A DNA stretch of 64,000 nucleotides, from contig CAZIDK010000001.1 in NCBI GenBank assembly GCA_964537895.1, forward strand, positions 134,198-198,197, given 5' to 3'. The stretch comes from an uncultured Gammaproteobacteria bacterium. GTDB taxonomy: Bacteria; Patescibacteriota; Microgenomatia; Levybacterales; UBA12049. This document shows positions 3,477 to 63,388 of the stretch, one piece after another. Position 1 is the stretch's first letter, and each line of letters starts with the position of its first letter. The notes beneath the pieces are model-generated. The model saw only the letters and a list, made by a program, of their open reading frames with translations. It did not search any database and was not told the origin of the DNA. The position numbers and the translations under genes are program-made.

Positions 3477-5227
3477 TTTTCTTTTGTAATTAGAGGAAGC
3501 AATGCTTCTTGAGGAATATCTATTTTTGAAGTTCCAAATAATTTATTTTTTCCTTTTTTCTGAGCTTCCAAAAGTTTATTTTTTCTTGTTACATCGCCCC
3601 CGGACATTTTTGCCAAAACATCCTTTCTGAATGGGGGGATTTCCGATCTGGCAAGAATTTTTCCGCCTACTTTTGCCTGAATAATCTGTTTTATTTGTTT
3701 CCTCGGAATTAAATCTTTAAGTTTTTCTGTTTTTTGTCTTGCCAGAAATTGAGCTTCATTACTGTAAACCAATTCCGAGAGCACGTCTATTTCCGTATCG
3801 TTTATTACAATTTCTAGATTGACCAAATCCGCTTCTTTATAATCAGTAAGTTCATAATCTATACTGGCAAAACCAGAAGAAACAGTTTTTATCTCGGGGG
3901 AAAGGTTCCTGATAAAGCAGCTGAATGGTATTTCATACTTTAATATCGCATTGTCTTTGTGATACGAAATATCAATAAGACTGCCTTTTTTACTTTGAGC
4001 AACAGACATTACTCCGCCGACAAATTTGGTTGGAGTAAAAATAATTAAATTCATATATGGTTCCAGCATTGCTCCATCTTCTCTTTTTTCATATAAAACG
4101 TGGGGCATAGTTAAAATCGGATCAATCTTTTCTTCTTGTTTTAATCTTTCTTTAAAAATCTCCGCGTGTAAAAGTCCTAAAAAACCTACTCTAAAACCAC
4201 TTCCCAAAAATACCGAATACTCTGAAGATATACTTAGCGATGCGTCATTTAACGAAAGTTTGCTTATTGCTTCTTTAAGGCGGACTAATTCGTTTGTACT
4301 TTTTGGATAAACGCCAAAAAATACCATTGGTTTTGGAGTCTCGTATCCGGGCAAGGGCTGAATGTCTGATTTTTGATTTTTGCTTTTTGCTTTTTGATTT
4401 GTCAACGTATCTCCAACCCTTGATTGTCTTATATCTTTTATTCCCGTAACTATATATCCGATTTCGCCGGTTGTTAAATCTTCTTTTGGAGACAGAAACG
4501 GAGAAAAAAATCCGACTTCGGACGCATCTACTCTCACTTTATTTTGCAAGAATTCTATTCTGTCTCTTTTTCTAATTTTTCCGTCAACAACTTTTATAAA
4601 AACCACGACTCCCCTATGCTCATCATATTCGGCATCAAAAACTAACGCTCTTAGGGGTGAATCCATCGAGCCTTTTGGTGAAGGAAGTTTTTCCACTAAC
4701 CCCTTAAGCAAACTTTCTACATTTTCTCCTGTTTTTGCGGAAATATAATATATTTCTTCTTTCTTAAACCCAAACATTTCTTCCAATTCCTTAGTAGTCT
4801 GTTCAGCCATTGCCGTGTCCAAGTCTATTTTGTTAATAACCGGAATTATTGTTAAATTTTCTTTTTGGGCAGCCCTAAAATGAGCCACTGTTTGCGCCTG
4901 AATTCCTTGAGTTGCGTCAACTAAAAGTATTGCCCCTTCACAGGCGGCTAAAGTTCTTGAAACTTCGTAGGAAAAATCAATATGGCCCGGGGTATCAATG
5001 AGATTTAGCGTATAGTTAATAGCGTTTAACGTATAGTGCATTCCAACAGGCGCAAGTTTTATAGTAATTCCGCGCTCTCTGCTGATAGGGCTTTGGTCCA
5101 AAAATTGTTCTTGAATTTTGTCTTTAGAAATAGTTTTTGTTAACTCTAAAAACCTATCGGCAAGAGTTGATTTACCGTGATCTATATGCGCGATAATTGC
5201 AAAATTACGAATAGTTGTTTGTTTCAT
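3473..5227 (-). CDS. lepA: translation elongation factor 4 (LepA)
   Basis: 584 aa. The G-domain NFAIIAHIDHGKSTLADR, DTPGHIDF and NKID motifs are present, as is the LepA-specific C-terminal domain. There is a short Lys/Gln-rich insertion (KAKSKNQKSDIQ). Confidence 0.93.
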   Translation of the reverse strand: MKQTTIRNFAIIAHIDHGKSTLADRFLELTKTISKDKIQEQFLDQSPISRERGITIKLAPVGMHYTLNAINYTLNLIDTPGHIDFSYEVSRTLAACEGAILLVDATQGIQAQTVAHFRAAQKENLTIIPVINKIDLDTAMAEQTTKELEEMFGFKKEEIYYISAKTGENVESLLKGLVEKLPSPKGSMDSPLRALVFDAEYDEHRGVVVFIKVVDGKIRKRDRIEFLQNKVRVDASEVGFFSPFLSPKEDLTTGEIGYIVTGIKDIRQSRVGDTLTNQKAKSKNQKSDIQPLPGYETPKPMVFFGVYPKSTNELVRLKEAISKLSLNDASLSISSEYSVFLGSGFRVGFLGLLHAEIFKERLKQEEKIDPILTMPHVLYEKREDGAMLEPYMNLIIFTPTKFVGGVMSVAQSKKGSLIDISYHKDNAILKYEIPFSCFIRNLSPEIKTVSSGFASIDYELTDYKEADLVNLEIVINDTEIDVLSELVYSNEAQFLARQKTEKLKDLIPRKQIKQIIQAKVGGKILARSEIPPFRKDVLAKMSGGDVTRKNKLLEAQKKGKNKLFGTSKIDIPQEALLPLITKEN

Positions 5228-8841: not shown

Positions 8842-10256
8842 AAAAAACAATTTGGGATAAACGTATACCAACACTTTTAGGAATGTTGCTTATAGTTGTT
8901 GGTATCGGTCTGACTTCTTTCTTAGTTGATAAGGGAGTAATTTTCATTGGACGCGCCAGTCCGGCAACAAATCCGCAAAACGTAAGAATAACCAACATTA
9001 CAGACAATTCATTTACTGTTTCTTATAATACGGATGCGCAAGTTATAGGCAGTTTAACTTATGGAAAAGATCAAAATTTAGGACAGACTGCCCTGGACGA
9101 CAGAGACCAGCAAACAGGCTCTTTGGCTAACCATAAGATTCACAGTATTACCGTAAGAAGCTTATCGCCTGTGACAAAATATTTTTTTTCGATTACCAGC
9201 GGGCAAGATAAATTTTCAAATAACGACACTCCATTCGAAGTGGTTACCGGAGCAAACGCAACTAGTCCTCCCTCGGAACAAAAACCGGTCGTTGGAAAAG
9301 TGGTTATGCCAAACGGCCAAGCCCCTGATGAGGCAATAATTTATATTACAACCGCCAACTCTCAAGTTATCTCTTCGCTTGTAAAATCCGGCGGAACCTA
9401 TTTGATTCCCCTGAATTCCGTGAGAAGTCAGGATTTGGCATCTTATTTGGATTTTTCAACCGTGAACACTCTTAAAATGCTTGTTTTTGGAGACGGATTG
9501 TCTTCAAACGTATCCTTATCTATAAACCAAATAAATCCTGTTCCAACCGTAACTCTTTCTCAAAATTATGATTTTGCAACAGGTACGGAACCTGTAGCAT
9601 CTTCATCGGCACAGCAAAATTCAGCCGAAAGTTTCCCGTCGCCAAAACCTAATGAAAATGTTTCAAGTAAGACCCCCCAGATACTAACTCCGCAGGCAAA
9701 TCAAAGTTTTTCCGATCAACAGCCTCTTTTTAAAGGCACTGGGAAGCCTAATGAAACTGTAAAAATAGAGATACACTCGGATGCGCAAATACAAACCGAG
9801 GTAAAAACCGATGCAAATGGAAATTGGAGCTACAGACCTAACGTCCCGCTTTCACCGGGACAGCATACGATTTCTATAACTACAAAAGATATAAACGGGA
9901 TATTAAGAACAATAACAGAAAATTTTACGGTTTATGCCGCAGGGAGTCAAGTTAACCCTGTTGCCAACCCTCCCACGGCCACCCCGACTCCCAGCCCGGC
10001 CCCATCCGCGACCCCTACACCAACTCCATCACCTACTCCTGCCGCAACGCCAACGTCTACTCCGGCGGCAACCGTTACGCCTACTCCAACTCCATCACCC
10101 ACTCCTACTCCAACCGTAGCGCCGACGGTAGCGCCCTCTAATCCCGGGCTTGCACCGGGAGGAAACTTACCGGGACCTGATGGGAAAATAATTACCTTAG
10201 GACTCCTCGGAGGAATACTTACCATTATCGGAGCCGTACTGCTATTTGCTTTATAA
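8838..10256 (+). CDS. surface protein: N-terminal TM/signal, fibronectin-III-like domain, beta-rich region, long Pro/Thr/Ala linker, C-terminal GPDxKI + hydrophobic tail
   Basis: The N-terminal TM is followed by NVRITNITDNSFTVSYNTD...HSITVRSLSPVTKYFFSI (FN3 / purple-acid-phosphatase-N-like). The 3' region encodes PTATPTPSPAPSATPTPTPSPTPAATPTSTPAATVTPTPTPSPTPTPTVAPTVAP. It ends PGPDGKIITLGLLGGILTIIGAVLLFAL followed by a stop. This tail is paralogous to the tail of the 2346..3476 protein. Confidence 0.6.
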   Translation: MKKTIWDKRIPTLLGMLLIVVGIGLTSFLVDKGVIFIGRASPATNPQNVRITNITDNSFTVSYNTDAQVIGSLTYGKDQNLGQTALDDRDQQTGSLANHKIHSITVRSLSPVTKYFFSITSGQDKFSNNDTPFEVVTGANATSPPSEQKPVVGKVVMPNGQAPDEAIIYITTANSQVISSLVKSGGTYLIPLNSVRSQDLASYLDFSTVNTLKMLVFGDGLSSNVSLSINQINPVPTVTLSQNYDFATGTEPVASSSAQQNSAESFPSPKPNENVSSKTPQILTPQANQSFSDQQPLFKGTGKPNETVKIEIHSDAQIQTEVKTDANGNWSYRPNVPLSPGQHTISITTKDINGILRTITENFTVYAAGSQVNPVANPPTATPTPSPAPSATPTPTPSPTPAATPTSTPAATVTPTPTPSPTPTPTVAPTVAPSNPGLAPGGNLPGPDGKIITLGLLGGILTIIGAVLLFAL

Positions 10257-15841: not shown

Positions 15842-17716
15842 GTGGTATCATTATACGGTATGAGGCAAGATTTTCTCAAGGACTTGAATAAGGAACAGCT
15901 CCAGGCAGTGCTTCAAAAAAATGGTCCGATGATAATATTAGCCGGAGCAGGTAGCGGCAAAACAAGGGTTTTAACCTATAAAGTTATCTATTTAATTTCA
16001 GAAGGGATAAGTCCTTTCAACATTCTCATGGTAACTTTTACTAATAAAGCCAGTAAAGAAATGAAAGAAAGAATGCAAAAGTTTTTTAAAAAAGGTGACA
16101 AACAGGTTTCCGAACTTCCGTCAATATCTACTTTTCATGCGCTTTGTGCAAAAATATTAAGAATTGAAGGTAAATACATTGGGATCCCAAATAATTTCTT
16201 AATATACGATAGTCAAGATCAAAAAGACACAATAAAAGAAGCCTTTAATCTTTTAGGGCTATCTCTAAAAGAGTACAAACCTTCATCTATTCTTGCAACC
16301 ATATCTCAAGCAAAAAACGAATTAATTGATGAAACACAATATCCGTCTTTTGCCAGAGGGCATTTTCAAGAAGTAGTTTCCAGAGTTTATGTAATTTATC
16401 AAAAAATCTTAAAGGAAAATGCTGCTTTGGATTTTGATGATTTAATTTTAAAAACAGTTGAGTTATTTAGAAAAAACCCGGATGTTTTGGAAAAATATCA
16501 AAATAAATTTAAGTATATTTTTGTAGATGAATATCAGGACACAAATCACGCACAATACCTGCTTACGAAACTGCTTAGCCGGAAATGGAACAATATTTGC
16601 GTCGTCGGCGATTTTTCTCAAAGCATATATAGTTTTAGAGGCGCAGATTTTTTAAACCTTGCAAAGTTTAAAGAGGATTTTAAAGATACAAAAACTTTTT
16701 CTCTTTCACAAAATTATAGATCAACTCAAAGAATTCTTGACGGGGCTTCTTCTGTTATATCTAAAAATAACGGTCATCCTGTTTTACAACTTTGGACCGA
16801 AAACAAAGCCGGAGAAGATATTTCAATTTTTGAAGCGTTAAATGAACAGCGTGAAGCGGAATTTACCTTAGAAGAAATGGAAAAAATTAAATATCAGAAT
16901 CCGAGTTTAAGATATTATGATTTCGCAATTCTTTACAGGACAAACGCGCAATCGAGGGCAATTGAGGAAGTTTTTATTCATAGCGGAATTCCATACATCC
17001 TAATCGGCGGAACAAGATTTTACGAAAGAAAAGAAGTCAAAGATGTGCTTTCTTATTTAAGAGTTATTGCAAATCCCAAAGACAAAATTTCTTTAAAAAG
17101 ATTAGAAAAATTAGGCAAAGGAAAATTTGTTAAATTCCTGGATTTTCAAAAAACTTTAGATGAAAAAAATATAAGTAGTGATACGACAATTTCTATTATG
17201 GATAGTGCTTTAAAAGCAACAGATTATCTTTCTTTATACAACGCAAAAGACGGGGAAGATTTGGGAAGACTTGAAAATATCAAGGAGCTTCGTTCTGTTG
17301 CAATCTCCTATCCTAATCTTGGAGAGTTTTTAGAAAATGTATCTTTGGTTGAACAAGAATATATACCCGATCACATAAAAGACGAAAACGGCAAGAAAGA
17401 TGCAATAAATTTAATGACTTTGCATGCGGCTAAAGGTTTGGAGTTTCCTGTTGTTTTTATGGTAGGAATGGAAGAGGGACTTTTTCCGCATAGCAGGAGC
17501 ATGATGGATAAAAATGAACTTGAAGAAGAAAGAAGACTCTGTTATGTTGGGATGACAAGAGCTAAAGAAAAACTCTTTTTAACCTATTCAAGAAAAAGGC
17601 TTTTCTTCGGACAAAAAACGACAAATATTGTGTCTAGATTTATACTGGAACTTCCGGAAGGAGTGTTGGAGAAAAGCTTAAATCGGATACGGATTGACGT
17701 TCCTGAATATTTATGA
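15842..17716 (+). CDS. UvrD/PcrA-family ATP-dependent DNA helicase
   Basis: GAGSGKTRVLT Walker A, FVDEYQDTN Walker B, helicase motifs through the Q-rich and VGMTRAK motif VI regions. The likely start is Met-7 (15860). Confidence 0.9.
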   Translation: MVSLYGMRQDFLKDLNKEQLQAVLQKNGPMIILAGAGSGKTRVLTYKVIYLISEGISPFNILMVTFTNKASKEMKERMQKFFKKGDKQVSELPSISTFHALCAKILRIEGKYIGIPNNFLIYDSQDQKDTIKEAFNLLGLSLKEYKPSSILATISQAKNELIDETQYPSFARGHFQEVVSRVYVIYQKILKENAALDFDDLILKTVELFRKNPDVLEKYQNKFKYIFVDEYQDTNHAQYLLTKLLSRKWNNICVVGDFSQSIYSFRGADFLNLAKFKEDFKDTKTFSLSQNYRSTQRILDGASSVISKNNGHPVLQLWTENKAGEDISIFEALNEQREAEFTLEEMEKIKYQNPSLRYYDFAILYRTNAQSRAIEEVFIHSGIPYILIGGTRFYERKEVKDVLSYLRVIANPKDKISLKRLEKLGKGKFVKFLDFQKTLDEKNISSDTTISIMDSALKATDYLSLYNAKDGEDLGRLENIKELRSVAISYPNLGEFLENVSLVEQEYIPDHIKDENGKKDAINLMTLHAAKGLEFPVVFMVGMEEGLFPHSRSMMDKNELEEERRLCYVGMTRAKEKLFLTYSRKRLFFGQKTTNIVSRFILELPEGVLEKSLNRIRIDVPEYL

Positions 17717-18720
17717 TAAATAAAAAATTACATCCCTTGCAATCCCCAGAGTGGGGGGAATTCAGAAAAAAAACAGGCGTTAAAGTTGTTAGGATTAATA
17801 ATTTACAACTCACAATTCATTCTCTTCCCCATACAAAATATACAATCGGATATTTTCCTAAAGGACCGGATATTGATAAAAAAATGCTTGATAAGCTTTT
17901 GGAGATCGGCAAAAAAGAGAACTGCATTTTTATTCAGCTAGAACCAAACGTTGAAAAGATAGATAATAAAAAATATAAGTTAAAAAATCTTTTTCCCTCC
18001 TTACGCCCTCTTTTTACCAAATATACCTTTATTTTAGATTTAACAAAATCGGAAGATAAACTTTTAAAGAACATGAATTCTAAAACAAGATATAACACCA
18101 AATTAGCAGAAAAAAAAGGCGTAAAAGTAATTGAAGATAATTCAGATAAAGCTTTCGAAGAGTATTTACGCCTTACCAAAGAAACAACACAAAGACAAAG
18201 ATTCTATGCCCACAGCGAAAGATATCACAGGCTAATGTGGGAAACGTTAAGTAATCAAAAATCATCCATTCGGGACATTCGGCTGAGCTCAGTCGAAGCC
18301 CAAGCTCAGGACAAAAATCAAAAATCGGATGATACCGAGCTATCTGCGCATTTATTGAAAGCTGAATATGAAGGAGAAATTTTAGCAGCGTGGATTTTAT
18401 TTGTTTTGGGGGATACGCTTTATTATCCTTATGGAGCTTCAAGTACTAAATACAAAGAAGTAATGGCTTCAAATCTTATGATGTGGGAAACAATAAAATT
18501 TGGTAAGAAATTGGGACTTAAAAATTTTGATATGTGGGGCGCGCTTGGGGTAAATCCTAACAGCAAAGACCCTTGGTACGGATTTCATAAGTTTAAAGAG
18601 GGGTATGGAGCAAAACACGTAGAATTTGTAGGCAGTTACGATTATGTTTTGAAGAAGAAATTATATGTTATTTATAATATCTTAAATAATATCCGCTGGC
18701 TTATTCTAAAACTTAAATAA
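17713..18720 (+). CDS. FemAB-family peptidoglycan interpeptide aminoacyl-transferase, carrying a 25-aa in-frame repeat-encoded insertion
   Basis: About 335 aa. It has the FemAB-like N-terminus (SPEWGEFRKKTG) and the conserved C-terminal ...DTLYYPYGASS...GFHKFKEGYG. It overlaps uvrD by ATGA. Residues NQKSSIRDIRLSSVEAQAQDKNQKS are encoded by the 74-nt repeat. Confidence 0.55.
   Translation: MINKKLHPLQSPEWGEFRKKTGVKVVRINNLQLTIHSLPHTKYTIGYFPKGPDIDKKMLDKLLEIGKKENCIFIQLEPNVEKIDNKKYKLKNLFPSLRPLFTKYTFILDLTKSEDKLLKNMNSKTRYNTKLAEKKGVKVIEDNSDKAFEEYLRLTKETTQRQRFYAHSERYHRLMWETLSNQKSSIRDIRLSSVEAQAQDKNQKSDDTELSAHLLKAEYEGEILAAWILFVLGDTLYYPYGASSTKYKEVMASNLMMWETIKFGKKLGLKNFDMWGALGVNPNSKDPWYGFHKFKEGYGAKHVEFVGSYDYVLKKKLYVIYNILNNIRWLILKLK
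18253..18326 (+). repeat. 74-nt insertion-like repeat, copy A (in-frame within the FemAB-family gene)
   Basis: AATCAAAAATCATCCATTCGGGACATTCGGCTGAGCTCAGTCGAAGCCCAAGCTCAGGACAAAAATCAAAAATC. It is identical to the reverse complement of 43946..44019. It has the internal 10-bp palindrome CTGAGCTCAG and 11-nt direct terminal repeats AATCAAAAATC. Confidence 0.85.
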
Positions 18721-26124: not shown

Positions 26125-26254
26125 ATCATAATTATATCAGAAGAATAATTGAGGCTAAAACCGAACCCGCCTAAAGACTCTAGCTTTACTTGATATTTAA
26201 TGGTAAAATCAACTACATTCCGCCGCAGTCAAACGCGGCTGGGAAGTTAGACAT

Positions 26255-26510
26255 TCCGCGGTAGCTCAACGGTAGAGCAGGAAACTGTAAAATAATGCAG
26301 CCCTCAATGGAAATGTTGAGGAGAAAAACTGGGCTAATTCGGGGAAACCCCTAGGGGCAATCCCGAGCTAAATCTCGCAAGAGTAAATGTGTAGAGACTA
26401 TATACCCAGGACCTAACTCGCAAGATATGGTCAAGAGATAGTCCACGCTTCGATGAAAGTCGGGGATAAGTGTAATTTCAAGGTTCTAGGTTCGAATCCT
26501 AGCCGCGGAG
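26255..26510 (+). tRNA. tRNA gene interrupted in the anticodon loop by a probable group I intron of about 184 nt; anticodon UGU (Thr) or GUA (Tyr) depending on intron boundary
   Basis: A 7-bp acceptor stem pairs tccgcgg (26255-61) with ccgcgga (26503-09). There is a D arm gctc/gagc. The T arm is ctagg-TTCGAAT-cctag (26486-26502). Between the 5' anticodon-stem half (ggaaa|ct, ends in U at 26286) and the 3' exon lies about 184 nt ending in G (26470). The insert carries group-I-like elements (...gactata..., aagatatggtc...gatagtcc). There is no encoded CCA. Confidence 0.6.
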
Positions 26511-26514
26511 CAGA

Positions 26515-27597
26515 TTAGCCGAGGTAGTCTTTAAGTTTATTGCCGCGGGATGGATGCCTTAATTTCCTCAAGGATTTTGCTTCGATTTGTCTTATTCTTT
26601 CTCTTGTTACCGCAAACATTTTTCCAACCTCTTCCAGCGTTTTTGGCCGTCCGTCTTTTAAGCCAAATCTTTCTTCCAAAACTCTTTTTTCTCTGTCAGA
26701 AAGAGTTGATAAGACCTGTTCTACCTGCTCTTTTAAAAGTTCCCTACTTGCCGTGTCAAAAAGAGTCGGAGCCGCAGTATCGTGAATAAAATCACCTAAG
26801 CGCGAATCTTCTTCGTCTCCAACAGGCGATTCTAAACTTGCCGGCTCCTGGGAAATTTTAATTATCTCCAACGCTTTTTCAGGGTCAATATCCAAAGCTT
26901 TGGCAACTTCTTCAGGCGTTGGCTCTCTTCCTAACTCCTGCATCAATTTTCTTGATGCTCTTAGAAATCTATTGATATTTTCAACCATATGAACAGGAAT
27001 CCTGATGGTCCTTGCCTGGTCAGCAATGGCGCGTGTTATGGATTGCCTAATCCACCAAGTCGCATAAGTTGAAAACTTATAACCCCTTCTCCAATCGTAT
27101 TTTTCAACTGCTCTTATTAAACCCTGATTTCCCTCCTGGATTAAATCTAAAAGCGTTAACCCACGACCGACATATTTTTTAGCAATAGACACAACTAATC
27201 TTAAATTTGAATTTACAAGAATTTTCTTTGCTTCGTGGTCTGCTTTTTCAACTCTTTTTGCCAAAGAGATTTCTTGGTCAAAGGTTAAAAGAGGAATTCT
27301 GCCGATTTCTTTAAGATACATTCTTACCGGGTCGGAGACTGTGCCTTCAGTTAAAACAGTTAATGCTTCCAGTTCTTTTTCCAAATCTTCTATCGGCTTC
27401 TCATTGCTCTGATCGGCTGCAACGGACTCAAAAACATCAATATCCGAATGCATTAATTTATCGTAAAGCTGATCAAGCTCAACAATGTGCTCTTCCGGAT
27501 GGGGAAAAATAGATAAAATTTCGTCTTGGGTGATATACCCGCGTTTTTTAGCAGACATAACGATATCTAATAAAATATTTGGCTGTTTTTGTTTCAT
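26515..27597 (-). CDS. rpoD: RNA polymerase primary sigma factor (sigma-70, RpoD)
   Basis: Region 2.x is [29 protein letters not shown]. The region 4 HTH is ...[30 protein letters not shown]. It lies downstream of dnaG. Confidence 0.93.
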
Positions 27598-39536: not shown

Positions 39537-40568
39537 TTATATCAGTTTTTCTTGCTTGGACTGCTTTGGAAGAGCTATTTTGAGATGTTGATAAGCTGCA
39601 GGGGTGGCGACGCGACCCCTGGTTGTTTTTTTAAGAAAGCCAATTTGCAATAAATACGGCTCTACCACCTCTTCTATTGTGCCGATATCTTCACTTATTG
39701 TTGAGGCAATTGTTTCTACTCCCACCGGCCCGCCGCTATGTTTTTCAATAATAGCTTTTAAGTACCTAACGTCTGACGAATCAAGCCCAACTTCATCAAC
39801 CTCTAGCATATCCAATGCCTCTTTGATAAGATTTTTTGTCAGTTTTCCATCGCTTTTTACCTGCACAAAATCCCTGGCTCTTTTTAAAAGTTTAAGCGCG
39901 ATTCTAGGCGTTCCCCTGGCTCTTTTGGCAATTTCTAAAACCGAATCTCTATCTATCGGAACTTTTAATTTTGCCGCCGCTTTTTCAATAATTTCTTCCA
40001 AATCTTTGGGATCGTAAAAAGAAAGCCTATGCACAACTCCAAATCTATCCCTAAGAGGCGCCGATAAAAGACCTATCCTTGTTGTTGCGCCGATTATTGT
40101 AAATTGAGGCAAATCCAAACGCAAAGTCCGGGCAGAAGGCCCTTTGCCAATGATTATATCCAAAGCATAATCTTCCATTGCCGGATACAAAGTTTCCTCA
40201 ACCACTTTATTTAATCTGTGAATCTCATCGATAAACAAAATATCCCCTTTTTCCAGATTGGTTAAGATTGAAGCCAAATCCCCTGCTCTTTCAATGGCCG
40301 GACCGGAAGTAACCCGAATATTGCTACCCATTTCTTTGGCTATAAGATGCGAAAGGGTGGTTTTACCTAAACCAGGAGGCCCGTACAAAAGAATATGTTC
40401 GATTGCTTCGTGCCGGTTTTTTGCAGCGGTTATACCGATTCTTATAGATTCTTTAACTTTTTTTTGTCCGTAAAACTCTTTCCAGTCTTTTGCCCGTAAA
40501 GAAGTGAAAAGTACCTCCTCCTCGGGAGTCTCCTCTTCGATTTTTTCTTTATCTATTTTTTTTATCAT
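39537..40568 (-). CDS. ruvB: Holliday junction branch migration ATPase RuvB
   Basis: [13 protein letters not shown] Walker [11 protein letters not shown] Walker B, sensor motifs and the C-terminal winged helix are present. Confidence 0.95.
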
Positions 40569-40574
40569 ATTTAT

Positions 40575-40640
40575 TTAGCTACTAGCCATTAGCCTCTAGC
40601 ATCTAGCCATTAGTTAACTAGTTGCTAGTTGCTCGTTGCT
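40575..40640. repeat. CTAG-rich intergenic repeat with ttgctag/ttgctcg heptad tandem (ruvB-ruvA spacer)
   Basis: gctaCTAGccattagcctCTAGcatCTAGccattagttaaCTAGttgCTAGttgctcgttgCTAGttgctcg. It shares the 25-nt core tagccattagttaactagttgctag with 41232..41290. Confidence 0.7.
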
Positions 40641-41226
40641 AGTTGCTCGTTGCTCGTCCTAACGCTTTCAGTGCCAGTTTTATTTTTTCATCCAATGTTA
40701 GTCCTTGGGTTTTTATTTCCCTAACAGTTTTTTGCGCTTCCCCTACCGAAAATCCGAAATTTTTAAGCGCCTGGACAACTTCGGCATTTTCCAGCAAGTC
40801 CTTGCCTGATAAATCCAAATCTGTGCCCGCTCCCATTTTATTTTTAAGCTCAATTATAATTTTCTGGGCATTTTTTGTGCCTAAGCGCGGAACAGAAGTA
40901 AAAAACGATACGTCTCCTTTAATTATTGCCTCGATTATGTCTTTTCTCTCTCCAAACGAGAAAATATTTAAAGCGGTTTTAGGCCCAATCCCCGAAACCG
41001 TGATTAGTCCTTCAAAAAGTTTTAAGTCTTCAATTTCCAAAAAACCAAAAAGAGCAAGTTCGTCCTCGCGAACATAGGTATAGGTAAAAAGTTTAATTTT
41101 GTCTGCTTTTGAGAGTTTTGAATAAACACTGTCGGAAACTAAAACTTTGTAGCCGACTCCGTTAACATCAACATAAATAAAGGGTCTGTCCAGAAGTTCA
41201 ATGCTGCCTTTGAGGAATCCTATCAT
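40639..41226 (-). CDS. ruvA: Holliday junction DNA helicase RuvA
   Basis: MIGFLKGSIELLDRPFIYVDVNGVGYKV is the OB fold. Tandem HhH motifs (GIGPKTA) and the C-terminal domain III are present. Confidence 0.92.
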   Translation of the reverse strand: MIGFLKGSIELLDRPFIYVDVNGVGYKVLVSDSVYSKLSKADKIKLFTYTYVREDELALFGFLEIEDLKLFEGLITVSGIGPKTALNIFSFGERKDIIEAIIKGDVSFFTSVPRLGTKNAQKIIIELKNKMGAGTDLDLSGKDLLENAEVVQALKNFGFSVGEAQKTVREIKTQGLTLDEKIKLALKALGRATSN

Positions 41227-41231
41227 AGTTT

Positions 41232-41290
41232 TAGTAATTAGCCCTTAGCCTCTAGCCATTAGTTAACTAGTTGCTAGCGGCTAGTTGCTA
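41232..41290. repeat. CTAG-rich intergenic repeat, second copy upstream of ruvA
   Basis: taattagcccttagcctCTAGccattagttaaCTAGttgCTAGcggCTAGttgCTAGttaCTAGc. It is followed at 41330..41370 by a tandem heptamer (atttaag)x5. Confidence 0.7.
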
Positions 41291-41585
41291 GTTACTAGCA
41301 TTAAAAGGATTATAACACAAGCTATAGTAGGACTTTAGATTTAAGATTTAAGATTTAAGATTTAAGAATAAAGAGCGGTCTCTTTTAGTTTGCAATCCAA
41401 CAAAGAACGTTAAGTTTTTGCGATTGAGCGAATCAGGGGAATTCCTCAGATCGCGAAGCGAGATTGAGGAAGGGGTGAAATTACCCGATGAGCGAAAGAG
41501 TAAAAATAGTTCGGCTTGGCTTGCAAAAAGTTTTTGGGCGTCTTTTCCGAAAAAGACGCAAAGAGCGATTGCTTTCACAAAAAAT

Positions 41586-42071
41586 CTATTTAATAGCAGA
41601 GATTTTTCTTGAAAATGCGTGGGTTAAGGCAATTGCCAAAGCGTCGGTTGTGTCGTCGAGTTTTGGAATTTCTTTTAAATTAAGAAGGGTCTTTACCATC
41701 TTCCCAATTTGGTTTTTCTCCGCTCTGCCGTAACCTGTAACCGCAATTTTAACCTGCAAAGGGGTATAAATATAGTTTTTTAGCTTATTTTCTGCCCCTG
41801 CCAAAAGCACCACACCGCGCGCCTGACCGACAACAAAAGCGGTTTTGGCGTTGGTATTAAAAAAGAGCTCTTCAATTGCCATTTCTTCGGGCGAATATTG
41901 CTTAATTAATTTTGAGATCTCTCTATAAATTGCGGAAAGTCGTAATGAAACTTCCGCGGTGCTTGGCGTTTGAATACACCCAAAACCCCTAACTTCCAGC
42001 TTCGAGCCCCTAGCTTCCAAAACGCCCCACCCGCATCTTGCAATTCCCGGATCAATTCCTAATATGACCAT
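41586..42071 (-). CDS. ruvC: crossover junction endodeoxyribonuclease RuvC
   Basis: The start ILGIDPGIARCGWGVLE places the catalytic Asp in IDPG. An RNase-H-like fold with conserved E/D/D residues is present. Confidence 0.9.
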   Translation of the reverse strand: MVILGIDPGIARCGWGVLEARGSKLEVRGFGCIQTPSTAEVSLRLSAIYREISKLIKQYSPEEMAIEELFFNTNAKTAFVVGQARGVVLLAGAENKLKNYIYTPLQVKIAVTGYGRAEKNQIGKMVKTLLNLKEIPKLDDTTDALAIALTHAFSRKISAIK

Positions 42072-43603: not shown

Positions 43604-45762
43604 GCGCTTTTAGCCGGCCATTTTGAAACTATAAGGCTCTCCCCTTTCCCAAACAGAACTTGGTTTATCTCCTCCGTAACAAAAGGCATGAAGGGATGCA
43701 GTAGCCTTAGGAGAATTAAGAATAAAGAATTAAGAATTAAGAATGAATTCTCGTCGATCCTATTCTTAACATCCTCAATATACACGTCTGCGAATTCATG
43801 CCAGGCAAAATTATAAAGGTTTTGCGCCGCATGATTAAAATCATATTTCTCCAAAAGCCTGGTAACTTCCGCTGTTAATTTTTCGACTTTTTGAAGCATT
43901 TCCGCATCCTTCTCATTTTTAACAATTTTTTCCAGTTCTTTCAAGGATTTTTGATTTTTGTCCTGAGCTTGGGCTTCGACTGAGCTCAGCCGAATGTCCC
44001 GAATGGATGATTTTTGATTTCGATTCATATCAATGAATCGTGCCATATTCCAAAGCTTATTGGTAAAATTGCGCATTGCTTGTAATTTTGAAAAGGACAA
44101 TGCTTGATCATTTCCCAAGGCTGTTCCGTAAACCAAAGCAAAACGCACCGCGTCTGCGCCATATGTATCAAGAAGTTCCAAGGGATTTATTGCATTACCC
44201 TTGCTTTTACTCATTTTCTTGCCCAAAGGGTCGTTTACCAGGCCGTGCAGGACAATAGTCTCAAAAGGCACTTTTTTTGTCTCGTAAATCCCGAGCATTA
44301 CCATCCTGGCTGCCCAAAACCTTAAAATGTCATAACCGGTTTCCATAACAGTGGTTGGATAAAATGTATCATAATCCCCTTCTTTTGCTGTTTGCAAAGT
44401 TGCGAAGGGCCATTGACCAGAGGAAAACCAAGTATCAAAAGCGTCCTCATCTTGCTTCATTTTTCCCGAACATTTCCCGCATTTTTCCCGAACATCCCCA
44501 TCTGTTACTTCCCACTCTCCGCACTTTTCGCACTTAAAAGCGGGTATTCTAATTCCCCACACGATTTGCCTTGAGATATTCCAATCTCTTATATTTTCTA
44601 AAAATTGAAAATAAAGTTTTTCCATATTTTTAGGATAAACTTTAATCTTGCCTGATTTTACAATTTCTATTGCCGGCTTTGCCAAAGGCTCCATTTTTAT
44701 AAACCACTGCTCCAGTGGCAAAGGCTCAATTGGATTTTTACATTTATAGCAAAGTCCGATTCTATGGGTATACTTATCATCTATTTTTTCTATTAACCCT
44801 TTTTTTTGCATCTCCTCAACAACCGCTTTTCTTGCCTGCTTTACGTAAAGTCCGGAAAATTTACCTGCTTTTTCATTCATTTTCCCATCCAGTCCAATTA
44901 CCTGAACCATTGGCAAATTATGTCTTTTTGCTACTTCAAAATCGTCAAAATCATGGGCCGGAGTTATTTTTACAACGCCTGTGCCGAATTCCTGATCAAC
45001 CATTTTATCTGCCACGACTTTAATTTTTGCTTTACCCAAAACCGTTTCTATGTCCAATTCTTTTCCAATGTATTTTTGGTAACGTTTGTCATCGGGGTGA
45101 ACAGCAACCGCAGTGTCTCCGAATTTTGTTTCCGGCCTTGTTGTTGCCAAAACCAAAGATCCATATTTTATGTAATAAAGGGGGTTTTGACGTTCTTCGT
45201 AAATTACTTCCAAGTCCGAAAAACTGGTCCCGTCAAAAGTACAGTAATTAACAAGTCTTTCCGCCCTGTAAATTAATCCGTCATCATGTAATTTTTTAAA
45301 AGTTTTATAAACTATTTTTACTATGTCTTTATCAAGCGTGAATTTTCTCCTGCTCCAATCAAGTGAAAAACCAAGACGTCTTAGCTGGTTTTCCATAACA
45401 GGCCTATTGCTTTGCACAAAATCCCAAATCATTTTATACAAAGTTTCCCGGGAATAATCAAAGCGTGACTTCCCTTCGGCTTGTAATTTTTTCTCAAACA
45501 CAAATTGCGTTTCAAAGCCCGCATGATCTGCTCCGGGAAGCCAGAGGGCTTTAAATCCCTGCATTCTTTTAAAACGAATGAGAATGTCTTCCAAAACATA
45601 CATTGCGTGGCCAAAGTGAAGCGGCGCGTTTGCGTTCGGAGGAGGTAAAATTATCGAGTAAGATTTGCCTTTAGGATTTACTTCGGGACTAAAATATCCT
45701 TTTTCTTCCCATTCTTTGTATATTTTTTCTTCAACATTTTTGTGACTATATACCTTATCCAT
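43600..45762 (-). CDS. valS: valine--tRNA ligase (compact form lacking the long C-terminal coiled coil), carrying a 25-aa in-frame repeat-encoded insertion
   Basis: The HIGH motif is PPPNANAPLHFGHA. KMSKSKGN is present. DTWFSSGQWPFATL and the anticodon-binding LLRLLHPFMPFVTEEI are present. Residues NQKSSIRDIRLSSVEAQAQDKNQKS are encoded by the repeat at 43946..44019. Confidence 0.85.
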   Translation of the reverse strand: MDKVYSHKNVEEKIYKEWEEKGYFSPEVNPKGKSYSIILPPPNANAPLHFGHAMYVLEDILIRFKRMQGFKALWLPGADHAGFETQFVFEKKLQAEGKSRFDYSRETLYKMIWDFVQSNRPVMENQLRRLGFSLDWSRRKFTLDKDIVKIVYKTFKKLHDDGLIYRAERLVNYCTFDGTSFSDLEVIYEERQNPLYYIKYGSLVLATTRPETKFGDTAVAVHPDDKRYQKYIGKELDIETVLGKAKIKVVADKMVDQEFGTGVVKITPAHDFDDFEVAKRHNLPMVQVIGLDGKMNEKAGKFSGLYVKQARKAVVEEMQKKGLIEKIDDKYTHRIGLCYKCKNPIEPLPLEQWFIKMEPLAKPAIEIVKSGKIKVYPKNMEKLYFQFLENIRDWNISRQIVWGIRIPAFKCEKCGEWEVTDGDVREKCGKCSGKMKQDEDAFDTWFSSGQWPFATLQTAKEGDYDTFYPTTVMETGYDILRFWAARMVMLGIYETKKVPFETIVLHGLVNDPLGKKMSKSKGNAINPLELLDTYGADAVRFALVYGTALGNDQALSFSKLQAMRNFTNKLWNMARFIDMNRNQKSSIRDIRLSSVEAQAQDKNQKSLKELEKIVKNEKDAEMLQKVEKLTAEVTRLLEKYDFNHAAQNLYNFAWHEFADVYIEDVKNRIDENSFLILNSLFLILLRLLHPFMPFVTEEINQVLFGKGESLIVSKWPAKSA
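43946..44019 (-). repeat. 74-nt insertion-like repeat, copy B (in-frame within valS)
   Basis: Its reverse complement is identical over 74 nt to 18253..18326. It has the same orientation and reading frame relative to its host gene as copy A. Confidence 0.85.
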
Positions 45763-45859
45763 ACACCCTGCACTTTCTTTTTAAAAAAACTTACCTTGCA
45801 ATACTTCTTATTTTATAGCTTTTTCAAGCTAATGGCTAGTGATGAAAGTGCAGGGTAAA

Positions 45860-58385: not shown

Positions 58386-58439
58386 GACTTAATAATAGCA
58401 GAAACTAATTGCTGGCAACTAAATACCAGCAACTAGTAA

Positions 58440-60383
58440 CTAGCTACTAGCGTCTAGTTTAGGAATGGGGTTTTCTGTTGGGAGGATGATAGTTGTCGCT
58501 GGCGGAGCAACCGGCTCATTGACCGGCGTCATAGGTGGTTCAACAGGGGCCTGTGTCATCAACCGCGCTCTTTCGGCTTCATCCTCCTGCATTTTAAGAA
58601 TTTCTTGCGGGTTAGATGTAATCATTGTGTGTTCAAAGGGTGCAGCTATAACTTTCATTGCAACATGGCTTTGTCCTGCAAAAAACAACCCTTCGCCGAT
58701 ATCCGCCGATAGCAAAAGTTCTTTCTCTCCCTGCGAGAGATAAAAGGTTTGCGAAACCAAGTCTACTTCGGACGGGCTTTGTTTTAAAAGCATTTGTATC
58801 GAAGAGTTTGATAAAATGGCTTTGCCATAGTCGGTGGACAGGAAATCCTGCACGTCTTGGGTTGCCGTTGTTAGCGCAAGATAATATTTGCGTGACCTTT
58901 TGGCAATGCTATAAACAAAAGAAGCAGAATCGGGATATTTCATAATATACCAGGCCTCATCAAGAATAAGAAGGCGCTTTTTAAGTGTTTTTCTAATCCT
59001 TGTCCAAACAAAATCTAAAACAATGTGCATGGCAACCGGCCTTAGCTCTTCCTCAAGCGCCTTGATATTAAAAACCGTTAGCAAATTCTTAAGATCAAAA
59101 TTGGATTGCTGGTTAAATATTCCGCTTAAGCTTCCTTTAATGAATTTCTCAAGTCTTAACGCCAGCTCTCTGGCGGCCGGGTCTTCCATGCCGAGCAATA
59201 CCTTGTATAAATCTTCCATTAAAGGAGGCTGTTTCTTTTGCGTTGTGGGATCGGCAGTTATGCCTTTTTGCCGGTATGTTTCGACCAGTGCCCTGTCTAA
59301 AATTGCATCGTGAGCGGCATCCAAATCGCCCATAATAATTCTTAAAAGTCCGTGTAAAGAAAGAATTTTAAGACCAAGCTCATTTTCGCCTTCTTCGTAA
59401 AGCCCGGACATGTCAAAAGGGTTTATCCTGACCGGATCAGACGCGGTAAAGGAAACATGCTCGCCTCCCAGAGTTTTTGCCAGGGTTTCATATTCTCCTT
59501 CCGGGTCGATAATGATAACTTCCGTTCCAAACATAAACTGCCTTATTGCTTCAAGTTTAATTAAATAAGATTTTCCCGCTCCGGATTTGCCCAAAACCAC
59601 TTCGTTGGCGTTTTCTAAGGAGAATCTGTCGAAAATAATTAAAGAACCGTTTTGCTCGTTAATTCCGTACATTACGCCTTTATCTTGCGCCAGCATTGCC
59701 GAAGTAAACGGAAAAGTTGAAGCAAGGGATGTTGTGTCCATGTTCCTAGTTATAAAAAGCCTGTCTTGTCCCAAGGGAATGCTGGATTTAAATCCGTCTT
59801 CCATTTGCAGGGTTGCGGTTTTTGAGAGCATAAGTATTGAGCCAAGCGTTGTGCTTAGTCTTTTCGAGGCTTCGTCTAAGTCTTTAACGTTTTCGGCAGA
59901 AAGCGTTATGTAGAGACTGTATTGAAAAAACCTTTCAACGCCTTTTGCCAGCTCTTCCTGAACGGATAAAGCGTCATCTAAAGATGCTTTTACCTTAGGG
60001 TCAATCAGCTGTCCTTCCTCAACTTGGGATGAAATCGTTGCTTCCATTTCGGCAATTTTTCTGCGCAAATCCGACAAAACATCGGGAGATGAGGTTGGAT
60101 AGATAAACATAGAAATATTCATAGAGTGGTCAAAGTCAATTATGGGCTGAAGCCAGTTTGCCGATACGTAGCGCGGATAGCCAACGACGAAAACTGTTTT
60201 ATAAAACTTTTCCCCTACTCTTATAAAATGAAAATCAACTTCAACAGAAGACGGCGCAATAATATCCGTTAAGGAAACCATTCCTTTTTCAAGTTTGGCA
60301 ATACTTGGCGAAACAGTCTGCTGCTGCTTTGCTGGCAGCTGTGTTTGGCTGACTTGGGTTTTGTTTTTTTTGAAAAGATTCAT
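58440..60383 (-). CDS. VirB4/TrbE/CagE-family type IV secretion ATPase (C-terminal ATPase part)
   Basis: Walker A GKSGAGKS, Walker B RLLILDEAWY, and a FYLSQGE/ATQ sensor region are present. 647 aa is short for VirB4. The N-domain appears to be encoded by the overlapping upstream ORF. Confidence 0.75.
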   Translation of the reverse strand: MNLFKKNKTQVSQTQLPAKQQQTVSPSIAKLEKGMVSLTDIIAPSSVEVDFHFIRVGEKFYKTVFVVGYPRYVSANWLQPIIDFDHSMNISMFIYPTSSPDVLSDLRRKIAEMEATISSQVEEGQLIDPKVKASLDDALSVQEELAKGVERFFQYSLYITLSAENVKDLDEASKRLSTTLGSILMLSKTATLQMEDGFKSSIPLGQDRLFITRNMDTTSLASTFPFTSAMLAQDKGVMYGINEQNGSLIIFDRFSLENANEVVLGKSGAGKSYLIKLEAIRQFMFGTEVIIIDPEGEYETLAKTLGGEHVSFTASDPVRINPFDMSGLYEEGENELGLKILSLHGLLRIIMGDLDAAHDAILDRALVETYRQKGITADPTTQKKQPPLMEDLYKVLLGMEDPAARELALRLEKFIKGSLSGIFNQQSNFDLKNLLTVFNIKALEEELRPVAMHIVLDFVWTRIRKTLKKRLLILDEAWYIMKYPDSASFVYSIAKRSRKYYLALTTATQDVQDFLSTDYGKAILSNSSIQMLLKQSPSEVDLVSQTFYLSQGEKELLLSADIGEGLFFAGQSHVAMKVIAAPFEHTMITSNPQEILKMQEDEAERARLMTQAPVEPPMTPVNEPVAPPATTIILPTENPIPKLDASS

Positions 60384-61051: not shown

Positions 61052-61168
61052 AAATAATTATTAATTTTCAATTTCTAATTTCTATTGGATTTTCAAGCTT
61101 CCAATCTTTGATTGCATCATTTTCATATCAAAAATAAAATTTTAAATATAAAATACACATAGCAAAAA

Positions 61169-61540
61169 TTAAATATTATTCCCTTTTCCTTTTAAAGTCG
61201 GGATACTTGAACCGAATATTTTGGAAATTTCATCAAGTTCTGCCAAAATTGAATTTGCTTCATCCTTTTCACCATTATCTGTATCCCGCAATATTGAAAC
61301 CCACACCTTGCTTTCATTTGCCGACTTTAAGCTATGGTGAAAATAGTTTGTGTAATCCTTCTTTGAACTTGCAGACTGCCCTTCTATATAGTTTCCCAAA
61401 ATACTCGTCCCGCTTCTTATTAATTGGTCTCCAATAATCTTTGTTGTTTGAGATTTTTTGCAATTCTCAACAAATTTAATAATCCTTAAGATAAGACCGT
61501 ATAAACGTTTTTTAAATTCTCTTTCCCTATCGTTTTTCAT
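61169..61540 (-). CDS. four-helix-bundle protein (PF05635 / 23S rRNA intervening-sequence protein family)
   Basis: GDQLIRSGTSILGNYIEGQSASSKKDYTNYFHHSLKSANESKVW matches the family core (QL.RSA.SI..NIAEG......D...F...A.GS..E...). Confidence 0.7.
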   Translation of the reverse strand: MKNDREREFKKRLYGLILRIIKFVENCKKSQTTKIIGDQLIRSGTSILGNYIEGQSASSKKDYTNYFHHSLKSANESKVWVSILRDTDNGEKDEANSILAELDEISKIFGSSIPTLKGKGNNI

Positions 61541-61584
61541 ATTTGATATGTATTTTTAATATTTTATATTTAATCTTTTAAATG

Positions 61585-62805: not shown

Positions 62806-62838
62806 AGTTCAGTTACTAGACACTAGTTAGATTAGTTA

Positions 62839-63225
62839 CTAGTTGCTAGTGTCCTCCTTTGTTAATTTTTTCATTTTTCCTATCATAACATTTAACATTT
62901 TAGAAACTTCCAACAAGAGATTCTCGCTTGGTTTAAATAATGTCTCTTTTGCCATAATTAATTCTTTTGAAATAATAAGCTGCGTTTCAAGCTCTAGGGC
63001 AGAGCCATAGGCAAAGGAATAAAACTGAACAGATGATCTAAAAGATCTTCGGCCGAATGCCTCTGCAATGTTTGATGGAATTGATACCGCCGCTCTTCTC
63101 ATTTGAGAAGTAATGCCAAAAACTTCTGATTTAGGAAAATTTTCGGTTAAAAGAAAGATTTCTTTTACTAATTTCATTCCTTTCTGCCAAACGATGAGTT
63201 CTTTATAAGATTTAATAATTGCCAT
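62839..63225 (-). CDS. four-helix-bundle protein (PF05635 family), second copy
   Basis: YKELIVWQKGMKLVKEIFLLTENFPKSEVFGITSQMRRAAVSIPSNIAEAFGRRSFRSSVQFYSFAYGSALELETQLIISKEL is an almost canonical match to the family. Confidence 0.8.
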   Translation of the reverse strand: MAIIKSYKELIVWQKGMKLVKEIFLLTENFPKSEVFGITSQMRRAAVSIPSNIAEAFGRRSFRSSVQFYSFAYGSALELETQLIISKELIMAKETLFKPSENLLLEVSKMLNVMIGKMKKLTKEDTSN

Positions 63226-63388
63226 GGGATTTCGTAACTAGTATCTAATAACTAGTAACTGATTATACTAGCTTATAACGTGAAAAATTACGTTGCAAGA
63301 TTATCAAACTAGGTGCAAACCGCGTCAGACGCGGTCAAAGGAAAATATTAATTTCAGCCTGCCCCGTGAAAATTATCCTTCGGAGAAA

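Follow-up and report, generated by a model that had tools for sequence, protein, structure and literature searches.

CTAG-rich spacer repeats around ruvA in a Levybacteria contig: probable gene-less copies of an S23p cassette with arms of TAG heptads

What are the CTAG-rich repeats that flank ruvA on both sides in a 64-kb stretch of Patescibacteria DNA (hereafter the window), and how did they come to lie there? The RuvB and VirB4-like proteins encoded in this stretch are 93-95% identical to proteins of Candidatus Levybacteria (Patescibacteria/candidate phyla radiation, CPR), and similar clusters are found in several of its other spacers. An original prediction, made from the sequence of the window, had offered three readings: elements akin to repetitive extragenic palindromes (REP) and bacterial interspersed mosaic elements (BIME), binding sites for a global regulator, or remnants of a mobile element with CTAG-containing ends. 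From the source genome our analysis covered the 64-kb window, which was compared with contigs of relatives, metagenomes and viruses. The CTAG-rich repeats are probably gene-less copies of a palindromic stem element built of TAG heptads, that is, cassettes of the 23S rRNA intervening-sequence protein S23p (family PF05635) that sit at cistron junctions and have lost their open reading frame (ORF).

The CTAG clusters are confirmed and lie well beyond what chance would give. The motifs are present at the coordinates originally given, and the observed/expected ratio (O/E) of CTAG in the window (G+C 37%) is 0.62 in coding and 1.59 in non-coding DNA, with the clusters concentrated in spacers as had been supposed. 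The premise that CTAG is the rarest palindromic tetranucleotide does not hold here, since its overall O/E of 0.82 is higher than those of GATC (0.53), GTAC (0.57) and GGCC (0.66). Five arrays with a total length of 312 nt contain 23 of the window's 75 CTAGs, and the pattern CTAGN3CTAGN3CTAG, present five times, never arose in 100 shuffles. Two CTAGs are separated by exactly 7, 14 or 21 nt in 11, 8 and 5 cases in spacers and never in genes; this strict spacing identifies the organising unit of the clusters as a heptad, (C/T)TAG plus three variable nucleotides. The array units are imperfect, yet (C/T)TAG is kept throughout. All six reading frames are closed in every array by 2-5 stop codons per frame, and RuvA, the VirB4-like protein and a PF05635 protein that we call IVP1 each terminate at the first in-frame TAG of an array. 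The strict heptad unit had been missed in the original prediction, as had the fact that each copy is itself an imperfect palindrome.

The first gene-less palindromic array (copy 1, 40576..40660, minus strand) occupies the junction of ruvA and ruvB, between the stop of the one and the start of the other, and consists of about 5+5 heptads around the centre TAGTTAACTA. The second (copy 2, 41232..41300, minus strand) lies between the -10 box and the ATG of ruvA. Each is 65-85 nt long and centred on TAGTTAACTA; they are 86% identical over 65 nt and share an identical block, TCTAGCCATTAGTTAACTAGTTGCTAG, at 40602-40628 and 41251-41277, which confirms the shared core of the original prediction but extends it from 25 to 27 nt. 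In the sense of the gene, the 5' arm of copy 1 holds the last six codons of ruvA and its TAG stop (40639-40641), so that TTGCTAG/TTGCTCG heptads indeed encode the last residues of the protein (..GRATSN*). The hairpin predicted for copy 1 has a ΔG of -35.9 kcal/mol (z -5.7), and that of copy 2 reaches -27.4 kcal/mol in the sense and -34.4 kcal/mol in the antisense orientation. Together with an array at 58400, the ruvA copies are predicted to form, on either strand, long bulged hairpins with ΔG from -27 to -36 kcal/mol and z from -3.4 to -6.8.

Comparison with relatives, in which the synteny ruvC-ruvA-ruvB is kept, suggests how these spacers arose. In two of them (L143 and L145), a single nucleotide separates the ruvA stop from the ruvB start and RuvA has 191 aa; relative to these proteins, the RuvA of the window carries an extra alien tail, ..GRATSN. 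A third relative (L140, about 83% nucleotide identity) has at the same junction a shorter array of 4+4 heptads, against 5+5 in the window. Upstream of ruvA, copy 2 is found in none of the three: their extended -10 box, TGTGCTATAAT, stands 10-13 nt from the ATG, whereas in the window the predicted extended -10 element of ruvA (TGTGTTATAAT on the minus strand, 41309..41319), conserved in the relatives, forms the upstream boundary of copy 2 and is set apart from the ATG by it. Copy 2 is therefore a new insertion in the 5' untranslated region (UTR) of ruvA, where it would be transcribed as a hairpin. By the same comparison, the ancestral ruvA-ruvB spacer measures 1 nt and both copies are insertions. 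Both are also present in an independent Logan assembly (L001), and the core of copy 2 resembles copy 1 of the window, not the array of L140.

The ruvC-ruvA spacer (41320-41585 region) deserves a separate remark. It measures 359 nt in the window against 22-24 nt in L140 and L143, and besides copy 2 contains a perfect (AGATTTA)x4.4 at 41337-41367 and about 170-220 nt of further sequence, with a hairpin at 41538-41559 directly after ruvC; L145 has an unrelated spacer of 200 nt. This spacer gave no Pfam, PF05635 or Rfam match, and the idea that its further sequence is a decayed PF05635 ORF was dropped, as neither tblastn nor Pfam matched it. A LexA/SOS box was likewise rejected for the palindrome 5' of ruvA, whose sequence is missing in relatives and turns up again both 3' of ruvA and at type IV secretion-like genes.

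The link between such arrays and a gene is found some 20 kb away, where the clusters at 62806 and 63226, originally counted as separate copies, turned out to be the two inverted arms of one gene. The upstream (5') arm of this cassette 1 (63226..63275, minus strand) is made of TAG heptads that run up to the ATG of IVP1 (62839..63225, minus strand), a 128-aa four-helix-bundle protein of the S23p family that matches Pfam PF05635 with an E-value of 1.1e-35 (122 bits, cutoff 33.8), a bAvd-like profile with 3e-5 and PDB 2GSC with 6e-19. Its C-terminus, ..DTSN*, extends into the downstream (3') arm (62806..62852, minus strand), which is composed of CTAG/CTAA heptads and ends 1 nt from the ATG of a PrgI-like gene (62805). 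When the whole 495-nt cassette was folded, both the minimum free energy and the centroid structures paired the arms as a terminal stem around the ORF, so that the model has the architecture of an rRNA intervening sequence (IVS). Cassette 2 (61135..61580, minus strand) lies between the PrgI-like and a TraC-like gene; its own gene (61169-61540, 123 aa, PF05635 E-value 5.8e-18) is bracketed by AT-rich inverted-repeat arms of period 7 (61135-61176 and 61539-61580), for which TRF gave period-7 rows at 61125-61155 and 61535-61580.

A third gene-less heptad array (58400..58460, minus strand) is placed between the VirB4-like gene, whose stop (58440-58442) falls inside it, and the start of the next gene (58385). 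All eight of its units keep the 7-nt register, an internal 14-bp hairpin included. Its predicted structure is more stable in the sense (ΔG -32.9 kcal/mol, z -6.8) than in the antisense orientation (-19.6 kcal/mol, z -2.3), a gap that would be expected if G-U pairs matter, i.e. if the structure forms at the RNA level. No rRNA was detected in the window; all copies lie between protein-coding genes and none in helix 9, 25 or 45 of 23S rRNA. No gathering-level Rfam match fell in the arrays, the only hits at 40500-41650 being at chance level (E 0.18 and 0.53), and neither a T-tract behind the hairpins nor a called terminator-like site was found at them, on which grounds intrinsic terminators and Rfam families were rejected as explanations.

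Membership is less clear at 45826-45845, which the original prediction had listed as a copy. The 11-nt match is there, inside a 35-nt mini-palindrome of the form (CTAGCCA)(TTAGCTT)-GAAA-(AAGCTAT) in the spacer between a Trans_reg_C gene and leuS (45807..45841, minus strand), but with two heptads per arm only it is a plausible, weak and possibly degenerate member. It is nested in a perfect 13-bp inverted repeat (45765-45777 and 45844-45856, ACCCTGCACTTTC and GAAAGTGCAGGGT) that encloses about 66 nt, and the spacer measures 97 nt in the window against 36 nt in L140. The segment 45765-45856 as a whole resembles a different small inserted element with a mini TAG-heptad palindrome inside. Two other candidates were discarded: a TAG chain at 5006-5036 is a false positive within the lepA coding sequence, and AGAATTA heptads at 43712-43744 belong to the genuine coding part of leuS and are kept in L140.

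The arrays behave as lineage-specific insertions at gene junctions, to judge from the insertion polymorphism seen at five junctions among Levybacteria. The 5' UTR of the PrgI-like gene is an empty site in one relative (L148), contains heptad palindromes without a gene in two others (L147 and L149), and in the window accommodates a PF05635 gene with its arms; in L148, the arms and the gene are absent as one unit. At the PrgI/TraC junction, a PF05635 gene is found in the window and in L147, against a spacer of 1-2 nt in L148 and L149; the array at the 3' end of the VirB4-like gene is shared by the window and L147, whereas L148 and L149 do not have it. The PrgI/TraC cassette of L147 has arms of (TTAGCGT)n and (ACGCTAA)n. 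Different cassettes of one genome use different heptads. Comparison of filled and empty sites revealed no target-site duplication.

How a palindrome loses its gene can be followed in L147. The gene-less palindrome at its PrgI site (L147:7555-7660) matches the arms of its IVPb cassette, 1.3 kb away on the same contig, at 73 of 90 positions, and it retains TAGTTATGAAAATA, the start codon and first codons of the cassette, joined directly to the downstream arm TTAACTATACGCTA. Copy 1 of the window, read on the plus strand, matches the arms of a second L147 cassette, IVPa, at 64 of 83 positions with the start codon abutting the stop codon: its centre TTAGTTAAC|TAGTTGC corresponds to TTAGTTATG[ORF]TAGTTGC. 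Considering these alignments and the retained start codons, the ruvA repeats are best read as ORF-deleted relics of an S23p cassette, similar in kind to MITEs (miniature transposable elements with inverted repeats), one of which would later have been copied to a junction 650 bp away.

Heptad arms are a general property of the PF05635 family, while their TAG content is a feature of the lineage. We scanned PF05635 relatives in metagenome contigs, which gave 80 loci (73 distinct, G+C 30-69%, 8 of them at the PrgI site), and compared the 70 nt upstream of the start and after the stop with those of other ORFs from the same loci. At least three in-register TAG heptads were found within 70 nt upstream in 59% of PF05635 loci against 0.7% of controls, and 42% of the loci, against 0.6% of controls, had at least three CTA heptads in the 70 nt that follow the stop. 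Heptads of the opposite orientation were seen in 10% upstream and 4% downstream. The best self-similarity lag was 7 or 14 for 50 of 68 upstream flanks, against about 16% of controls. The arms are mutually complementary (median score 23 versus 13.5 for shuffles, 66 loci) though the heptad varies with the cassette (TTAGCGT/ACGCTAA, TTAGGGT/ACCCTAA, TAGCCA/TGGCTA and others), and their length peaks at 4-5 heptads. These cassettes sit in strings of co-directional genes: in 51 of 61 an ORF of the same strand starts within 120 nt downstream (median gap 30 nt), and in 43 of 58 such an ORF ends no more than 120 nt upstream. PF05635 genes of cyanobacterial and Gemmatimonadota plasmids are bracketed by other inverted heptamers, sometimes octamers, with units such as GGGAACA/TGTTCCC, AGTCAGG, GGAGATA/TATCTCC and CTGCCCT, and several are placed among cas genes, with cas6 and cas4 or cas10 and cmr3 on their two sides. 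Three cyanobacterial plasmid loci (L236, L239 and L237) illustrate this arrangement: genes annotated as 'four helix bundle protein' and belonging to PF05635 stand, heptamer-armed, within CRISPR-Cas operons, with cas6/cas4 insertions in Pseudanabaena and Anabaena sp. 90 and a cas10/cmr3 insertion in Picosynechococcus; the upstream arm of Pseudanabaena is (GCTAAAA)x15.

From the anatomy, the insertion polymorphism, the PF05635 link and the deletion origin that these comparisons document, the following scheme can be proposed. A full element would comprise an upstream arm of 3-5 (N)TAGNNN units, a gene for an S23p protein of about 120 aa (a pentameric four-helix-bundle family related to Avd of diversity-generating retroelements) and a downstream arm of NNNCTAN units, the reverse complement of the first. 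It would insert inside operons at cistron junctions, with a stop codon or a -10 box directly before it and the next start codon a few nucleotides behind it, in the orientation of its neighbours. Loss of the ORF would fuse the arms into an imperfect palindrome of 60-85 nt with the centre TAGTTA|ACTAG, the type to which the ruvA-flanking copies and the 58400 array would belong, and at least one gene-less copy would subsequently have been duplicated to a new junction 650 bp off. Since the element has a promoter or stop codon in front of it and the next start codon behind it, it would be transcribed within the operon mRNA, where folding predicts a long stem that is, by analogy with rRNA IVSs, a likely substrate of RNase III. 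A TAG every 7 nt closes three frames, and incoming ribosomes should terminate in the first heptads; with such stops at its edge, a cassette could land behind any gene, which would explain the alien C-termini. In essence the element would be selfish or neutral, and its presence would uncouple cistrons that used to overlap, the ruvA-ruvB pair being uncoupled or possibly re-coupled via the predicted hairpin.

Several observations weigh against this interpretation or limit it. We identified no mechanism of mobility, be it a transposase, a target-site duplication or any other, and the word mobile refers here to presence/absence patterns and one local duplication. The 64-kb window contains no IVPa-type cassette matching the arms of the ruvA copies, and which way these copies face with respect to the ORF that they presumably lost is ambiguous (scores of alignment 67 versus 51 and 66 versus 62). 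The cyanobacterial arms are without stop codons, so that closure of all frames is not universal. CTAG heptad arrays of the form (CTAGNNN)x3CTAG occur in at least 120 viral contigs with no PF05635 gene nearby; among the matches listed, 50 are perfect tandems, 37 have two spacer types and 33 are variable. Ribosomal-protein operons of other phyla have such arrays as well. CTAG/TTAG heptad palindromes built on the same plan are found in spacers of Gammaproteobacteria metagenome-assembled genomes (MAGs), at L136:5222-5762, L138:1776-1806 and L129:1281-1339, among them those of nusG-rplK-rplA, rpsF-ssb and H+-PPase-gyrA. Heptad arrays can thus exist, and perhaps arise, independently of the cassette. 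A single-sequence phmmer search found no PF05635 gene beside arrays in other phyla or viral contigs, and the family hidden Markov model found one weak homologue, in L136; the link with S23p is therefore not valid for all CTAG heptad arrays.

Some side results of these searches may be added. The weak PF05635-like ORF of L136 (3896-4270) has (NAAATTT)n heptads upstream. The pattern TAGN4TAGTTAACTAGN3CTAG has 18 matches in genome contigs, including several Patescibacteria, three in one Bacteroidota MAG and two in one Gammaproteobacteria MAG; CAACTAGTTAACTN3GGCTAG had no match in metagenome contigs. A link between the TAACTGA heptamer and PF05635 found no support: 107 viral loci with TAACTGA x3 contained one PF05635 ORF, flanked by GGCAGAA-type heptads instead. 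GGGAATC x3 was seen in three viral loci only. In five viral contigs (L254:2453-2905, L316, L256, L269 and L283), paired arrays of TAACTGA x3-4 stand 432-439 nt apart in direct orientation around an opposite-strand ORF of about 125 aa that is not PF05635, a second small gene framed by heptamer arrays.

Could the arrays have been born in place, as heptanucleotide simple sequence repeats (SSRs) expanded by replication slippage, which is known to favour 7-nt units, in AT-rich spacers in which PF05635 genes later land or are tolerated, their association being secondary? Heptad numbers differ at the orthologous ruvA-ruvB site, 50 of the 120 viral arrays listed (total at least 120) are perfect tandem repeats, CTAG arrays are known without a PF05635 gene, and the window has other period-7 arrays such as the (AGATTTA)x4.4 near ruvC. 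Heptamers are, moreover, the most abundant class of long SSRs in many prokaryotes according to Mrazek 2007 as quoted in PMC4679880. Slippage does not readily explain why imperfect units retain (C/T)TAG, why they form inverted pairs and not simple tandems, or why an identical core of 27 nt is common to copies 1 and 2, which lie 650 bp apart, with copy 2 missing in L140. Identical heptad types in both arms of PF05635 cassettes, the ORF remnant that persists in a gene-less palindrome, and the empty L148 site, from which the arms are judged to belong to the inserted unit, point the same way. Slippage in place is still a real contributor and competes as an origin, although as the sole account we consider it unlikely. 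We give slightly less credit to the proposal that a host regulator uses the arrays as operators or RNA sites, namely a ring-shaped protein or one of ribbon-helix-helix type that, like HutP or plasmid omega, would contact (U/T)AG every 7 nt and govern ruvAB, type IV secretion-like genes and further ones. The strict 7-nt spacing, with a tetranucleotide that never varies and a 3-nt spacer that does, fits periodic protein contact, HutP binds three UAG motifs 4 nt apart per hexamer face and TRAP binds XAG repeats (PMC2425495), the arrays adjoin start codons and one promoter, and in Beggiatoaceae and Nostoc a role as regulator sites has been suggested for heptamers close to start codons. A host regulon is nevertheless unlikely because the arrays are absent at orthologous sites whose neighbouring genes are 83-93% identical. 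The flanked genes are functionally unrelated, other phyla carry such arrays in the nusG-rplK-rplA, rpsF-ssb and gyrA spacers, the heptad differs between cassettes of one genome, against a single global regulator, and no candidate regulator was identified. The global-regulator reading of the original prediction thus finds no support as a host regulon; a cognate binding protein is possible, perhaps the S23p of the cassette itself.

The closure of all six frames, with three upstream ORFs ending at the first in-frame TAG of an array, would also suit insulators selected by the host, that is, stop blocks or terminators between cistrons. This is very improbable, given that the hairpins are followed neither by a T-tract nor by a called terminator-like site, that relatives function with 1-nt spacers, and that cyanobacterial PF05635 arms contain no stop codons; in metagenomic cassettes each flank has its TAGs on one strand and not on both, sense upstream and antisense downstream. 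Least credible of all are REP/BIME palindromes mobilised by a REP-associated tyrosine transposase (RAYT, a Y1 transposase). The arrays share with them that they are short, extragenic and imperfectly palindromic and occur in several copies, hence the loose analogy drawn originally, but the defining REP features are lacking: the elements measure 60-85 nt with 8-12 heptads, without a GTAG-headed unit of 20-40 nt, and lie 5' of genes directly before start codons, and among the proteins scanned the genes flanked by repeats are PF05635 and ruvA, not RAYT. A transposon footprint, in which a 4-bp CTAG target duplication plus a 3-nt scar would add up to 7 nt, was discarded, as no identified element supports it. 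Among the three original readings, remnants of a mobile element with CTAG ends come closest, through the lineage-specific insertions, the PF05635 arms and the deletion derivatives, save that no mobility enzyme was found.

The S23p cassette as the probable source of the repeats has its nearest counterpart in the IVSs with an S23p ORF that interrupt 23S rRNA in Leptospira and Coxiella burnetii. IVSs of this kind are described as selfish elements, stem-loops with inverted repeats at their ends that RNase III cleaves (shown in Coxiella, reported in other bacteria), and S23p as a homopentameric toroid (PMC4990558); the IVP1 homologue 2GSC has five chains in the PDB. Both elements have, or derive from one that has, a PF05635 protein in the loop and terminal inverted repeats pairing as a stem around the ORF (PMC4990558), both are patchy and regarded as selfish, and for the rRNA elements too there are stem-only forms without an ORF. 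They differ in location, the window element lying at cistron junctions of protein-coding CPR operons and not in helix 9, 25 or 45 of 23S rRNA, and in the arms, whose 7-nt TAG-bearing units are mentioned neither in PMC4990558 nor in the other literature that the searches brought up; excision by RNase III would hold for the window by analogy. MITEs are comparable as short, multicopy, non-coding inverted-repeat derivatives of a gene-bearing element, with insertion polymorphism between relatives. Unlike them, the present repeats show neither a target-site duplication nor a transposase-encoding parent, the parent coding only for a four-helix bundle of about 120 aa with no known catalysis.

Intergenic heptamers of other bacteria are also similar in part. 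The TAACTGA repeats of marine Beggiatoaceae, Cyanobacteria and Bacteroidetes (MacGregor 2015, PMC4679880) are arrays of 2-6 tandem heptamers a few nucleotides upstream of start codons that overlap the upstream stop codon, carry stops in three frames, are followed by the start codon without a Shine-Dalgarno sequence in the gap and are also seen in ribosomal-protein operons. The window arrays agree with them in position, stop overlap, frame closure and the lack of a Shine-Dalgarno sequence at that place, and the CTAG arrays of other phyla do so in their location in ribosomal-protein operons. The window arrays have inverted (C/T)TAGNNN units and predicted hairpins where the others have a fixed TAACTGA in direct orientation and no predicted structure. 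The short tandemly repeated repetitive (STRR) sequences and heptamers of cyanobacteria and the GGGAATC repeats of Xanthomonas (Rehm 2015, PMC4692102; bioRxiv 10.1101/2022.06.06.494920) are intergenic heptamer arrays, often in convergent pairs (70-75 such pairs of GGGAATC, PMC4692102), that stand near start codons or promoters and have no known function; such heptamers bracket the PF05635 genes of cyanobacterial plasmids. Their units are G-rich or purine-rich and without stop codons, unlike those of the window. In the searchable literature no connection between S23p genes and heptamer repeats was found.

A tentative extension concerns the protein itself. The targets of HutP and TRAP carry NAG triplets at fixed spacing, and for HutP a UAG with 4-nt spacers gives a 7-nt period read by a ring-shaped homo-oligomer; the pattern of at least three UAGs separated by 4 nt at two sites (as defined in PMC2425495) is found in the window on both strands. 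S23p is a ring-shaped homopentamer, and cassette arms peak at 4-5 heptads. HutP and TRAP have no homology to S23p, and the resemblance is one of principle. By this analogy, the element may be recognised by its own S23p pentamer. In a more speculative form, which we hold to be possible rather than likely, S23p pentamers would read their own flanking heptads on RNA or single-stranded DNA with one subunit per 7-nt unit, the module would autoregulate or mobilise itself, and its decay would be a major source of bacterial intergenic heptamer arrays, covering the TAG heptads of CPR bacteria, the STRR-like repeats of cyanobacteria and possibly the GGGAATC of Xanthomonas. The cassette-specific heptads of one genome fit cognate protein-repeat pairs and also simple co-inheritance.

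The window contains further features unrelated to the repeats. At 26240-26515 (plus strand), a tRNA gene is apparently split by a group I intron (Rfam RF00028 at 26279-26465, 67 bits, with tRNA-like ends flanking); ARAGORN found no tRNA anywhere in the window, and group I introns in tRNA genes of Patescibacteria have been described (PMC13011429). A perfect 74-nt repeat is present in two genes (18253-18326, plus strand; 43946-44019, minus strand), encoding NQKSSIRDIRLSSVEAQAQDKNQKS in leuS and in ORF 17713-18720. It appears native to leuS, because the leuS of L140 has a homologous segment without nine residues, and the other gene seems to hold a piece of leuS, or else the assembly is chimeric. 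Inside ORF 15842-17716, a gathering-level match at 17497-17595 (plus strand, 71 bits) to RF03531, the Clostridioides difficile small RNA n00280 'included into helicase gene', probably reflects conserved coding sequence and not a small RNA. Finally, C-rich tandem repeats of 12/24 nt (ACTCCCACGCCA and similar) at 9970-10125 and 2953-3018 within ORFs probably encode Pro/Thr-rich linkers.

Taken as proposed, the finding is an IVS-like S23p element in operon junctions, with arms built of heptads and with gene-less derivatives; it is not categorically new. PF05635/S23p proteins are abundant in CPR bacteria, cyanobacteria, Bacteroidota and others, and to our knowledge they have no known function, even though a structure has been solved since 2006. 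Intergenic heptamer repeats (STRR, TAACTGA, GGGAATC) have been catalogued since 1990 and, as far as we know, without a mechanism. The present finding, if it holds, would join these two loose ends: S23p genes are systematically framed by inverted heptad arrays, and arrays without a gene can be what is left of them. It yields a concrete model, in which the protein would bind the repeat and RNase III would process the stem. For the annotation of CPR genomes, the element would explain the CTAG-rich hairpins between normally overlapping genes such as ruvA and ruvB, and the alien C-termini (..TSN*) of the proteins encoded upstream of them.

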